From Escherichia coli (GTDB lineage: Bacteria > Pseudomonadota > Gammaproteobacteria > Enterobacterales > Enterobacteriaceae): 64,000 bases of DNA. The stretch is taken from NCBI RefSeq assembly GCF_024298765.1, contig NZ_CP101210.1. One strand, given 5' to 3'. Every line of letters starts with the position of its first letter. The stretch's first letter is position 1. Below, one piece after another: positions 9,001 to 15,000 of this stretch. The position numbers are program-made.

Positions 9001-12000
9001 TGCTGCTCCTGGCCGCTGTGTTGCGCATTGTCCTGTATAAATAGCGTGGTCTGTACCAGCAGATATTCCCGGTTCACTTCGGCTGTCGGATAGTTTTCCA
9101 GGGTGAAGGTAAAACCTGTCATCAGGGTACGAATATTGCCGCTGCCCTGTACCCGACTACCTGGGCTACGCTGTTCTTCCATGCGAATGCGTGTCAGCAT
9201 TTCACCTTCACTCTTTGTGAAGTAATCTCCCGGCCATTCGTAGTGCTCATATTCAGCAAGGCCGGTTTCACGCGGATTAGCCACGGTGCTCTTCAGCAGT
9301 GAACGCGGCTTCATAAAGTCGAAATCATTCAGCACCCACTGTCCGCTGCGCAGACTTTCATTTGCTGTGATGGTATGGATAAACTCCTTGTCCAGTTTCA
9401 GCCCTTTCTGGTAATAACACACCAGCGGCGAATCTGCGCATGCCTTGTGGACATTAATGGCATCAGCCAGCACTAACGTGTGACTGTTCTCGCTGTGCTC
9501 AAACCACCAGTAGATACCCCACTCCTGCATCAGGCGCTGAACAAAATCGAAATCTGTTTCACCGTACTGCACCTGCCAGGCGCGAGTCGGATAATTTTCC
9601 ACCAGTCGTTTTTCCACTGGCCAGGGGTACTCATCCAGTACCTCATCCAGGATCTCCACCACGTTTTTATTCTGAAACGCTTTGTAGTCACTAGTGTGGG
9701 TCAGTATTTTTAACCACGGTTCGAGCCGCAGTTCATACACCACCGAACGTCCTTGATGACCAGCCACGCGTGCCGCCGTCACCAGCCCGCTGATATAACG
9801 TTTTCCGCCGCCATCCAATTCGATATTGACGCACAGATCTTTGCCCACCATCGGTTTGAGCTGCAGGTTGGCTGCGGGGGAAACATAGCCCAGGTTCAGG
9901 ATGTCAGGAGTTTTTAATTTAATAGAATAAGTAAATAGTTCCCCTACTGTTTCTGTACCCCCTAAGCTTGCAAACAGTAACATTCCATCAGGAACTGCGC
10001 TGCCGCTCAAAGTCACGTTATGTGTACCCGATCCAGTTAGTGCGCCGGATGGATAATCTGTAGCTGCAAAACTCATAATTAATCCTTTTAACTAGAAATG
10101 GATAAGTGCTAATAAGAAATCTTACAGAGAATAAAATATGCAATATATTCGTAGCTGGCATAAAACATCTCAATACTTATGCGTGCTACTGAAGATACTA
10201 TCAACCATATATGCCTTGAAGAATGCACCGTCATGTTAACCTGGTGGAAACATTCACCTAAAGTACATTAATAAAACTAATAAAATTATTTAATTTGTTA
10301 TTTGATATGATTATCATCAAGTCTTAAAATACGTTCTCCGGTTCTAATTATGCTAAAACCATAGTATTCTTTTTTACTTCCGGAAGAGAGCATATATTTC
10401 CCTATATACATAACATCTGAAGATAGCTCACTTATATCAATACATACGGGTTCGAACTGACCTGTCACTCTTTTCAACTTTATTGCATTGCCATATTTAC
10501 CTTCATATAAAACATAATTTGAAATAATATTCCCATCGTCTGGTTTTGAACAAATCTGTCCGTCTTGCAAATATACACTACCGGGTAACAATGGGCGAAC
10601 ATAATCACCAACAGTGCATCCCGACAAAAAGAAAAACAAAAAGAATCTCTTCATATGACACCCGCAGGAAATAAATTAAGCACCTTTTTGTATTTTTCCG
10701 ATAGAGTGTTCACTGATTCAGTTGTATCACCTACATAGTTAACATTTGCCAAATCAGCCACCAGTCCATAGTTAATTAATAGCCAATAATCAACAACTAT
10801 AGATGCTTGTTGTTCCATGGAATAAGAAGAAATTGACTGTAAATTAAGATCGTAATGATAATTTGCCGCCCAAGAAAATAAACCACGCAACTTAACTGCA
10901 TACCCTTTCTGATATTGCCAAACATGCATCATTTCATGAATAAACAAGTGAGAAGCACCTGCTACTGTTTCACGATCACCAGGCATTGCTTGCGATGAAT
11001 AATCTGAACTATAAACAGCATCAGGATAATACATTTCCCCGTTTGGGGTCATCGCTGTTCTTTCCCCTTGACCAGGCAAATATTTTTCATTGTGGATCCA
11101 TACCTTGCTATAATCAATTGTATTCTCAAAAATCGATCTGGCCAATGTTAATTCACCAGATGTCATTCTCCTTAATGACATATCCTTTCCCCTGGAAATA
11201 ATATCTTTCAGATAAAACACAAACGCCCTTTGATGTTCAATATTCCCACTTTATACAGTATTGATGACATCATCTTCATAGAAAATAAAATCAAAGCAAG
11301 TTATCAACGTTTCCCGTTATGATTTCTTAACATTAATTCTCAGCATTTTTATTAATCTATCTTCAATATCAATAACCGATGCAAATGATTACGCAGCTAA
11401 CATAATTCTCATCAATTGATTAATATCTGTAAACGCTACCGCCCCACCCTGATATCTTAATCTGCACATAGCAATCTTAACGTTATGCCCCATACATTAG
11501 TAATGTAAATTAAGAATTCGGAATATATCAAATTCACTTCATAAATTAATATCGGGAATGATATACACATTAATTATATTGAAGTAATGTTTTAAGAGTT
11601 GTAATGACCATGGAACAGGACTAATTCCAGAAACTCCTGTTGGGCAATAGCGCGTTTATCATCCTACATGCCTCTTACATTTTTTAGCCTTTTCTTTAAC
11701 GTCAGCAATTGGCTCATTTAATCAGCAATGGTATTGGTATTTGGCGTATTACCCCTGAAACCCGTCATGTGCTAGCACCTCACTATTCAATGAGCCAACC
11801 ACGCCAGTGTCCACTGCAACCACTGGCGTTCAGAGCGACGAACGAGTGGCGCAAGAGTAGGACTGCCGTCGGGCATCATCAAACCAATAGTGGTTGTTTC
11901 CGTCAAAATTTCATCAGGTTGCTATTTGGTTGCCGGCCGCCTTTATCCCCACATATTTATAGCGGGATTATTTTGCATCGTTACACGATAAAAGGTAGGA

Positions 12001-15000
12001 TTCTGCGCCGACAGTTATACCCATAAAGAATAATGGTGAATCTTGTCATCGCCAGGATGAATAAACATTGTTCATGGCAACTTATATGACTTTTTCATTA
12101 AAGCAATCAGGGAGAGCAATGAGTAAACACGACACCGACACTTCAGATCAACACGCCGCGAAACGCCGCTGGCTTAATGCCCACGAAGAGGGGTATCACA
12201 AAGCGATGGGCAATCGCCAGGTGCAGATGATCGCCATTGGCGGCGCGATTGGTACGGGTTTGTTTTTAGGCGCGGGAGCCCGACTGCAAATGGCGGGGCC
12301 AGCACTGGCACTGGTCTATTTAATCTGCGGCTTGTTTTCGTTTTTTATTCTGCGTGCATTGGGTGAGCTGGTGCTACACCGCCCTTCCAGTGGCAGTTTT
12401 GTCTCTTATGCCCGTGAGTTTTTGGGTGAGAAAGCCGCTTATGTTGCAGGCTGGATGTACTTCATCAACTGGGCGATGACGGGGATTGTCGATATTACCG
12501 CCGTTGCACTGTATATGCATTACTGGGGCGCATTTGGTGGTGTACCGCAGTGGGTCTTTGCGCTCGCTGCGCTGACCATCGTTGGCACCATGAATATGAT
12601 TGGTGTGAAATGGTTTGCCGAGATGGAGTTCTGGTTTGCGCTTATTAAAGTGCTCGCCATTGTGACCTTTTTGGTCGTGGGTACAGTGTTCCTCGGTAGT
12701 GGTCAGCCGCTGGATGGCAACACCACTGGCTTTCATTTAATTACCGATAACGGCGGCTTCTTCCCCCACGGTTTGCTACCTGCGCTGGTGTTGATTCAGG
12801 GCGTAGTGTTTGCTTTTGCCTCCATTGAAATGGTGGGTACAGCTGCCGGAGAATGTAAAGATCCGCAGACCATGGTGCCTAAAGCGATTAACAGTGTGAT
12901 TTGGCGTATTGGCCTGTTTTACGTCGGCTCCGTGGTGTTGCTGGTTATGTTATTGCCGTGGAGCGCGTATCAGGCGGGGCAAAGTCCGTTCGTGACGTTT
13001 TTCTCTAAACTGGGTGTGCCGTACATCGGCAGCATTATGAACATTGTGGTGCTGACCGCTGCCCTCTCCAGCCTGAACTCAGGTCTGTACTGCACCGGAC
13101 GTATTCTGCGCTCGATGGCGATGGGCGGTTCCGCACCGAGTTTTATGGCGAAAATGAGTCGTCAGCATGTGCCGTATGCCGGGATTCTGGCGACACTGGT
13201 TGTGTATGTCGTCGGCGTATTCCTCAACTATCTGGTGCCGTCGCGCGTATTTGAGATTGTGTTGAACTTCGCGTCGCTGGGAATCATCGCTTCATGGGCG
13301 TTTATCATCGTGTGCCAGATGCGCCTGCGTAAAGCGATTAAAGAAGGCAAAGCAGCGGATGTCAGTTTTAAACTGCCTGGCGCGCCCTTCACTTCCTGGC
13401 TGACATTACTGTTTTTGCTGAGCGTCCTTGTGCTGATGGCGTTCGATTACCCGAACGGGACTTATACTATCGCGGCGCTGCCGATTATCGGTATTCTGCT
13501 GGTTATAGGCTGGTTTGGTGTGCGCAAACGCGTTGCTGAAATTCACAGCACTGCGCCAGTCGTCGAGGAAGATGAAGAAAAACAGGAAATTGTGTTTAAG
13601 CCTGAAACGGCGAGCTAATTGCAAAATTGCCCGGCTACGTGCCGGGCAAATTCAAATTACTGACGAAGGTGCCGGATACGGCGTGATAAAAGTCAGGCAA
13701 GTCTCTCCATTTTCACCCTCGCCATATCTATTACAGCGCAATACGAATCACATCGTCCGGCTGGGTAGCTTCCTGCTGTTTAGTGGATTTTTGTTTCACA
13801 CTGACATACAGCGTTTTGCCATCGGCAGACAGTGCCAGGCTGTTCGGATGAGTCGGCGTATCGAACGTTTTCACCACTTTATAGCTTTTCGCGTCAATCA
13901 CACTGACTTTACCTGCCTGACGATGCGTCACGTAGGCTTCATTACGCGCGGGGTTAAACAGCACAGCCAGTGATTCCGGTGCCGCAACCTTCGCCAGAAT
14001 ATTGCCATTACGGGTATCGACCACTAACACTTCTGCCGCTTTAGAGTCGGTGATAAATGCACGCTGCCTTGCGGTATCAAGGCTGATGTTGATAAAGAAG
14101 TGCTCTTTGCCGTCATCCAGCAGCTTTTTACGGCTGAGGATTTTATTGTCGGCGGTGTCGATGGTAATCAATTCGCCGTCAGCGTTAGTGGTGTAAAGAC
14201 GTTTGCCTTTGCTATCCAGCGCTAAACCGGTACTCATTTTACCGGTGTTCTGGATGGCGGTTTTCAGTTTGATATTCTCGCCATCAACGACCCAAATCAC
14301 GCTCTCTTTACCAATACCACTGATGTAAACGGTGTTCGTGGCATCGTCTGCCACCAGCTCACGCGGTTGCAGCGGGCGCACCTCTTCAGTGCGCTTACGA
14401 TCATCCAGCACCAGACGGCCTTTCACTTCGCCCGTTTTGGCATCTATCGCCGTGACCGCGCTGTTTACAGTGTTACCAAACCACAACGTCTGAGTCGTGT
14501 TATTGATGGTAGCACCAAACGGCTTGAGATCGTTATGGATCGCCTGCGTCACTTCCAGAGTAACCGGATCAAGACGATAAACCACGCCGCCTTTATCCAG
14601 TTTGCGGCTTTGCGAAGTGGCGAGCCACAGCGCGTTTTCTTGCTGGCTATAAGCCATTTCGTAGGCACCTTTACCTACCGCTTTACGCAGCATTTCTTCT
14701 GCGGCCTGCGTACTGAATGATGAAGCAACAAGCAATGAACCTAACAGTAATGAACCACGCAGGCGCGATGAAAACAGATGACGTAAATGCATGACGACTC
14801 CCTTTGATGAACCGATATTTTTGCTGCTTCACAATGCTTCGCTAAGCGTAATCATCGTTACGCTCTTGTTATAAATGGGAATGGTAATCATTATTTTCTC
14901 AAATGTGGAGCATTTCTTGCCGTTACGACTACAATTTTCTCAATTACTTAACATATCGTGCCGTTTCGTTTTCCATAAATTTACAATTTTATTACCATGA

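Follow-up and report, generated by a model that had tools for sequence, protein, structure and literature searches.

A probable mosaic, non-coding control region upstream of ansP in a hypervariable vgrG/RhsE locus of Escherichia coli

In a 64,000-nucleotide stretch of Escherichia coli DNA (contig NZ_CP101210.1, assembly GCF_024298765.1; here called the window), a long spacer without an evident gene lies between ansP and a small effector and immunity-like gene pair (the toxin pair), which is read away from it. What is this DNA, and does it hide a gene, a small RNA, or the edge of a genomic island? An earlier note on the window had placed the gap at 11221-12118, and we found it there, between the toxin pair and the ansP start codon (ATG 12119). 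It measures 898 bp when counted from the longest effector open reading frame (ORF), which begins at GTG 11220. The effector start in RefSeq, ATG 11181 (176 amino acids), is preceded by GGGGAAAGGA and has a good Shine-Dalgarno site, so the effector probably starts there and not at GTG 11220, and the true gap is more likely 937 bp (11182-12118). Our analysis indicates that the spacer is probably a mosaic, non-coding, divergent control region in a hypervariable vgrG/RhsE locus, without a functional gene. Taken as a whole it is ordinary, being composed of sequence types already known, and a conserved block in its left half is the sole feature of somewhat wider interest.

Four layers make up the mosaic: counted from ansP, an upstream core (11964-12118), the remains of a yncG-like gene (11664-11936), the conserved block (about 11419-11596), and leader DNA (11182-11418) restricted to the genomes with the toxin pair. 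The mosaic structure is seen in the distribution of the spacer among genomes. In searches of 5,426 complete E. coli genomes, from which all distributions given here derive, the approximately 155 bp next to ansP (11964-12118) were found in 5,405 genomes, the middle layer (11447-11963) in 781, and the layer next to the effector (11221-11446) in 229 only, all of them at the ansP locus and all with the toxin pair. DNA specific to the toxin pair starts at about 11430-11446, some 690 bp from ansP. About 550 genomes have the middle layer without the toxin pair. In two annotated examples, AVS0790 and isolate 30224_1#305, the insertion sequence (IS) ISEc1 adjoins window position 11447, and all the DNA between that point and yddH is lost, which looks like an IS-associated deletion. 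The composition is also uneven. The GC content of the spacer is 38.0%, compared with 49.4% for the window (lowest 2.6% of 898-bp windows), and it is 31.4% at 11221-11650 (lowest 0.6% among 430-bp windows), 44.0% in the 468 bp at 11651-12118, and 47.7% in the 279-bp core of that right part (11667-11945). The description of the spacer as strongly AT-rich is therefore true of the left half alone. Promoter-like sites found by consensus scan lie mostly in the AT-rich half (9 in the spacer, against 4.8 ± 2.0 expected). The whole spacer is 100% identical in strain 104, an E. coli isolate from chicken; APEC O2-211 is another strain with the window haplotype. By the annotation of strain 104, the minus strand carries, on the left of the spacer, two small genes (one effector-like, one immunity-like), then vgrG, a gene of the DcrB/Eag type, and a complete Rhs gene, and on the right of the spacer lie ansP, yncE, and pqqU. 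Further left, window 10001-11220 and strain 104 (10790-12980 of its extracted locus) show a net 9-bp length difference, probably in the vgrG-immunity intergenic region.

Comparison with K-12 showed where this mosaic comes from. Global alignment gave 100% identity over the last 73 bp before ansP (12046-12118), approximately 90% at 11999-12045, 80% at 11964-11998, and only noise upstream of 11964. With a sensitive blastn search, 11815-11916 matched the inside of K-12 yncG (68.6%) and 11430-11551 matched a K-12 stretch flanked by yncH and the rhsE fragment (124 bp, 76.6%). The alignment to K-12 that the earlier note had proposed thus has a double outcome: high identity ends inside the spacer, and weaker colinear homology goes on over most of it. 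That note had inferred an island insertion boundary here and had named K-12 homology through the whole spacer as the observation that would speak against it; such homology was found in part, by way of a yncG-like relic and the conserved block. K-12 itself carries the same type of vgrG/RhsE island at the same site in degraded form, with vgrG and the 5' part of rhsE gone, and in strain FAHZZU6014 the series ansP-yncG-yncH-vgrG-Rhs is intact there. As the homology is patchy but colinear and K-12 has the same island type, we read the spacer as a divergent allele of the K-12 yncG-yncH region rather than as a junction of core DNA with a new island, and the proposed boundary does not stand, there being no clean break in homology. 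We rejected an attachment-site (att)-type genomic-island junction: identity to K-12 falls stepwise and patchy colinear matches then continue, and the junction has no meaningful direct repeats, transfer RNA (tRNA) gene, or integrase. A tRNA search of the whole spacer also gave none.

The two loci are alike in their chromosomal site and in the order of ansP, a glutathione S-transferase (GST)-like gene, the block, and then vgrG/Rhs reading away from ansP; the final 73 bp ahead of ansP are identical in both. They differ in that the GST gene of the window is a divergent allele (51% amino acid and 68.6% DNA identity) that is truncated, internally deleted, and interrupted by stops, in that yncH is not in the window, and in that the window has an effector resembling the VgrG2b C-terminal domain, with its lipoprotein immunity partner, between the block and a different vgrG lineage. 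Because the yncG-like relic is present, the window haplotype can be regarded as an old, divergent allele of the K-12 series ansP-yncG-yncH-block-vgrG, in which the toxin pair stands between block and vgrG. The locus is no fresh insertion beside ansP but the K-12 RhsE region in an old allelic form.

The right part of the spacer is largely taken up by the remains of the GST gene. In tblastn with K-12 YncG, residues 54 to 100 matched the minus strand at 11796-11936 (51% identity; E value, 5e-11) with an in-frame stop, and residues 175 to 200 matched 11682-11759 in the same frame and in colinear order; a stop codon five codons past the residue-200 match stands at the position equivalent to the YncG stop. 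The first ~53 codons and roughly codons 104 to 163 are missing. The in-frame stops, the loss of the ~53 N-terminal codons, and the deletion of ~60 internal codons show that this is a relic and not a functional gene, and the similarity, significant, in one direction only, and colinear, places it in the YncG/GST family as a pseudogene. A Pfam search of the translated relic gave no match; K-12 YncG matches GST_N_2 and GST_N_3. A 39-amino-acid ORF within it (11787..11906, minus strand) has been named "glutathione S-transferase" by NCBI, and when databases were searched with the translated relic for a close homologue that is intact, this E. coli fragment itself was the only match. Escherichia sp. 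E1V33 has the same relic, also with stops, plus 12 extra bases that encode the YncG motif FADY. The divergence between the two relics, ~15 to 24%, matches the neutral rate obtained from ansP third codon positions, of which 99 of 500 differ.

On the opposite strand of this relic lies the 105-amino-acid ORF (ORF105) that had been noticed earlier as having no recognizable motifs. Searches of ORF105 and the small ORFs against Pfam and NCBIfam gave no match, in agreement with that description. The frame is open in the four strains compared, as it would be in a real lineage-specific protein gene, yet it starts with TTG, has no family match, and runs antisense over a recognizable GST relic. Its variable sites fall 9, 6, and 3 at codon positions 1, 2, and 3, so that the first two positions take 15 of the 18 substitutions, almost none of which leaves the amino acid as it was, and the E1V33 counterpart shows an indel of 12 bp and has diverged by 19%, as neutral DNA typically does. 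Its position antisense over the relic, the lack of a family, and a substitution pattern that is wrong for coding DNA make ORF105 an artefact, and that it is a genuine gene is scarcely credible. The claim that the spacer holds no real protein gene is thus upheld, and for annotation, the long "empty" spacer requires no new gene: the remains of a dead yncG-like gene account for both ORF105 and the 39-amino-acid "glutathione S-transferase" annotated in some genomes.

The left half contains the conserved block. Both the K-12-type ansP locus and the cusS-vgrG island have, ~350 bp upstream of their vgrG genes, non-coding DNA that is 74 to 77% identical to the block. The vgrG coding sequences of the window island and of the K-12/cusS types align over 266 bp only (67 to 68%), and nothing else aligns; across island types, the block is better conserved than the vgrG coding sequence. 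Members of the block family were found in 5,265 of the 5,426 genomes, in up to three copies per genome and ~7,775 copies altogether. The O157 genomes gave one copy with a window-type probe and two with a K-12-type probe, which fits the cusS and ansP-locus islands and not the main type VI secretion system (T6SS) cluster. Plasmid matches proved to be mis-filed chromosomal pieces. Between the window and E1V33, which has the same arrangement of toxin pair, spacer, and ansP, the block (11419-11596) has 3 differences in 178 bp, while the 44 bp on its left have 11 and the 124 bp on its right have 30 (~24 to 25%). Over 11405-11597, 7 of 193 sites differ, compared with 127 of 610 in the flanks (Fisher P = 8e-10). 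The core motif of the block gave a single match in a one-genome-per-species scan, in E1V33, so the block has no depth outside the genus.

Two shorter elements stand out within the block. In the K-12 and cusS island types, its core overlaps a sigma-70-like TTATCA-16-TATATT on the vgrG strand. The second is a near-palindrome whose minus strand reads GAATTTnATAAATTC in the other island types; the window copy has one half-site mismatch. A ~490-bp region that reaches down to vgrG is homologous in the K-12 and cusS types; it opens with the block, which is also its most conserved part (90 to 95%). The vgrG-Eag-Rhs island adjoining cusS is the vgrG1/rhsF island of enterohemorrhagic E. coli (EHEC) (PMC7216683). 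This orphan vgrG1-Eag-RhsF island resembles the window island in that the block, with the sub-motifs ACGTTAAGAT, ATGTGCAGAT, TATCAGGGTGG.GCGGTAGC, and GAATTTnATAAATTC all identical, stands at its head, ~350 bp upstream of vgrG. It differs in its chromosomal locus, in having the promoter-like TTATCA-16-TATATT that is not in the window, and in the extent of its homology to the K-12-type ansP locus, which takes in the whole ~490 bp from block to vgrG and, for the window type, the block only. In K-12, the yncH-rhsE spacer was identified by genomic systematic evolution of ligands by exponential enrichment (SELEX) as a binding site of the RpoD holoenzyme and was flagged as H-NS associated (PMC3946193); the block lies inside this bound spacer. 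Matching by eye of the block and the ansP core to Fur, CRP, ArgR, IHF, Mar, and sigma-54 sites gave nothing convincing.

On the effector side of the block, a candidate sigma-70 promoter at 11372->11345 is kept as TTGATA-16-TAAAAT in FHI_NMBU_03 and as TTGATA-16-AAATAT in E1V33. The segment is 93 to 100% identical among relatives and its neighbours have diverged; the effector leader, in particular, is strongly diverged from E1V33, with a 27-bp indel. At the other end, 11990-12078 (~90 bp) is identical to E1V33 despite ~20% neutral divergence, and the last 45 bp before ansP vary. The earlier proposal that the spacer likely holds the ansP promoter is in keeping with these data: the 155 bp proximal to ansP are universally conserved, and their ~90 invariant bp fit an ansP control region. 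A literature search for a mapped ansP promoter or start site found none.

With moderate confidence, we take the block for a module that regulates the leftward operon in cis from the head of that operon, because of its promoter-like core, its conserved near-palindrome, and the SELEX and H-NS record of the K-12 counterpart. In the arrangement we propose, the last ~155 bp would drive and regulate ansP, with the invariant stretch 11990-12078 acting as part of its operator and promoter and a more variable 5' untranslated region following. In the other direction, the AT-rich half would be the start region of an effector-immunity(-vgrG-Eag-Rhs) transcription unit, read from the lineage-conserved sigma-70-like promoter 11372->11345. 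Upstream of this promoter would lie the ~180-bp block kept at the head of all Escherichia vgrG/Rhs islands, a putative cis-acting DNA module with sites for RNA polymerase and regulators and a probable nucleation point of silencing by H-NS. The yncG-like GST wreck, which decays neutrally, separates the two control parts. The effector/vgrG operon is probably H-NS silenced. The H-NS-silenced promoter regions of T6SS genes gained horizontally, such as the EHEC T6SS bidirectional promoter, resemble the spacer, which is AT-rich divergent intergenic DNA (31% GC in its left half) heading T6SS effector genes. H-NS repression of the EHEC T6SS is documented (PMC13141884). The promoter of the EHEC main cluster differs in that it has no detected sequence similarity to the spacer. 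The features on which this arrangement is built are listed in Table 1.

Table 1. Features of the spacer between the effector gene and ansP, in window coordinates
Feature	Coordinates	Strand	Basis or remark
Effector gene leader, specific to toxin-pair genomes	11182..11344	-	Includes the doubtful GTG extension 11182-11220
Candidate sigma-70 promoter of the effector-immunity(-vgrG) operon, TTGATA-16-AAAAAT	11345..11372	-	Suggested by consensus scan
Conserved non-coding block of Escherichia vgrG/Rhs islands	11419..11596	-	Part common to island types, ~11430-11577
Most conserved block core, ATGTGCAGAT-N5-TATCAGGGTGG	11444..11469	-	One window match versus 0.00 expected by chance
Near-palindrome GAATATATCAAATTC, possible operator site	11521..11535	.	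Columns conserved in a six-sequence alignment of three island types
yncG-like glutathione S-transferase relic (pseudogene)	11664..11936	-	tblastn with K-12 YncG
ORF105, artefact antisense to the yncG relic	11709..12026	+	TTG start
ansP upstream core (putative promoter/operator and 5' untranslated region)	11964..12118	+	Shine-Dalgarno GGGAGAG at 12110-12116

Several findings weigh against this arrangement. A consensus sigma-70 scan of 11964-12118 found no site, from which we take the ansP promoter to be probably activator dependent or weak. On the leftward side, two further promoter-like sites of the minus strand (11433->11405 and 11531->11502) lack conservation. The promoter-like hexamers in the block of the other types are not kept in the window, where homology stops exactly at the -10 position and the toxin-pair module begins. 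The cusS type does not conserve the promoter given in the SELEX paper, TTGACT-17-TATTAC (PMC3946193), which is located ~90 bp downstream of the block. In two comparisons within E. coli, the block did not differ significantly from its flanks overall (P = 0.72 and 0.08); in FHI_NMBU_03, its conservation is strong relative to the left flank. Finally, third-position divergence from E1V33 is 5% for the effector, 11% for vgrG, and ~20% for ansP, and the island thus looks more recently exchanged than ansP. This lower divergence of the island genes weakens the neutral baseline for the block, whose signal could partly reflect later exchange.

The last point leads to a different explanation, that the block is not regulatory and is a structural head or boundary of the vgrG/Rhs element, kept similar by recombination, either as a crossover point for effector cassettes or as a recently transferred patch. 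The lower divergence of the island genes from E1V33 suggests such horizontal exchange, and homology between island types does begin or end at the block: the cusS and K-12 types are alike only from the block onward, the window type has only the block in common with them, the toxin pair is inserted immediately on its vgrG side, and the ends of ISAs1-family elements adjoin it at two different positions in other strains. Set against this, there is no integrase, att-like direct repeat, or tRNA at the junction, a pure patch leaves unexplained why the same ~150 bp are best conserved between types that are ~25% apart, and the homologous K-12 spacer binds RNA polymerase holoenzyme in vitro (PMC3946193). 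We consider this explanation unlikely. The idea that the block is itself an ISAs1/ISEc1 terminal repeat was rejected, since only the 5-bp CCCTG at the junction is in common; the ISEc1 of AVS0790 could be delimited as a 1,291-bp element with CAGGG ends (6714-8004 of the extracted locus). Rearrangements that touch the block were seen in other strains. In SCU-306, an E. coli strain with a fourth ansP-locus island type in which PAAR and vgrG are both frameshifted (3416-4241 of its extracted locus), a 5' remnant of an ISAs1-family element adjoins a 37-bp piece of the block core, beside a frameshifted K-12-type yncG; NC101 and other strains have 37-bp matches similar to that of SCU-306. In a derivative of the enteropathogenic E. 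coli strain E2348/69, a 150-bp deletion (corresponding to window 11325-11474) between TCTTAAC direct repeats takes out the candidate effector promoter and the block core, and vgrG and Rhs are also pseudogenes there.

The earlier note had also suggested that the spacer could encode a small RNA. The block, or another part of the spacer, could act as a small regulatory RNA in trans or as a 5' leader for post-transcriptional control of the vgrG island. Within its type the block shows strong conservation, and it can be recognized in the other island types with no ORF conserved, and in the K-12 and cusS types it starts an upstream region of ~350 to 490 bp that is homologous through to vgrG. In an EHEC study from 2026, moreover, a swap of the vgrG1 promoter gave no VgrG1 or RhsF protein, and the authors suggest post-transcriptional control of orphan vgrG islands (PMC13141884), an outcome that would suit such an RNA. 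The searches for RNA signals speak against it. An Rfam scan of 10000-13000 at E ≤ 1 gave only a spurious eukaryotic snoR27 (28.8 bits, against a gathering score of 41), and a scan of both strands of the spacer for intrinsic terminators gave 0. Fold z-scores of windows over the block were unremarkable (-1.1 to +1.2), and the consensus fold of the block from three island types was weak (-10.75 kcal/mol), with an unfavourable covariation term (+1.25). Sliding-window folding of both strands singled out only 11682-11831 on the plus strand (z = -4.26), inside the GST relic. The hairpins there (11709-11798 and 11801-11829, plus strand, with stems of 13/14 and 9/9 bp) are lineage specific: in other strains and E1V33, 0 of 39 pairs are compensated and every variable stem position breaks a pair. 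With no Rfam family, terminator, or covariation, the small-RNA proposal finds no backing, and we give such an RNA a low probability, slightly below that of the recombination boundary.

Translation of the block as a leader peptide is a still weaker candidate. A short upstream ORF begins within it on the minus strand at 11469 (ATG TGC AGA, MCRLRYQGGAVAF...). Its first ~13 codons can be aligned in all three island types, and where the K-12 and cusS types differ over these codons (GGG/GGA and GCG/GCA), both changes are synonymous for the frame. But two synonymous changes easily arise by chance (about 0.1), the window type has the nonsynonymous changes S->L, C->R, and Y->F, and an indel of 4 nucleotides, together with the end of homology, makes the C-terminal halves wholly different between types. 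The ORF, of 34 amino acids, has a weak Shine-Dalgarno site and no Pfam match. That this peptide is made is very improbable.

Returning to the cis-regulatory reading, a broader version can be offered only tentatively: the block may be a dedicated control module, as a shared operator or an RNA-level leader, that heads every Escherichia orphan vgrG/Rhs island, co-regulates the scattered islands with the main T6SS or keeps them silent independently of it, and marks the entry point of new effector cassettes, the toxin pair among them. Short, strongly conserved, island associated, and non-coding, the block is a concrete and cheap experimental target.

The genes and strains around the spacer yielded some further observations. 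The "accessory toxin" gene (10651-11181, minus strand) encodes a free-standing protein, with an HExxH motif, that is homologous to the metallopeptidase effector domain at the C terminus of Pseudomonas aeruginosa VgrG2b (PDB 6H56; E value, 3.7e-20), and matched no Pfam or NCBIfam family. The gene downstream of it (10298-10654, minus strand), which overlaps it by 4 bp, gave a weak match, at 30.9 bits and under the cutoff of 43, to NF045617, "putative T6SS immunity periplasmic lipoprotein". Downstream of pqqU, FHI_NMBU_03, AVS0790, and E2348/69, with divergent toxin-pair or ISEc1 haplotypes, have only GntR-family fragments; mcbR and curA are intact in the window strain and K-12. In strain EC581, a tyrosine-integrase element with HNH endonuclease and helix-turn-helix genes (2649-4103 of the extracted locus, corresponding to window ~12016) lies ~100 bp upstream of ansP; the whole vgrG/yncG side is replaced and the last ~103 bp of the ansP core are kept, and from this insertion, the region upstream of ansP appears to be an integration hotspot as well.

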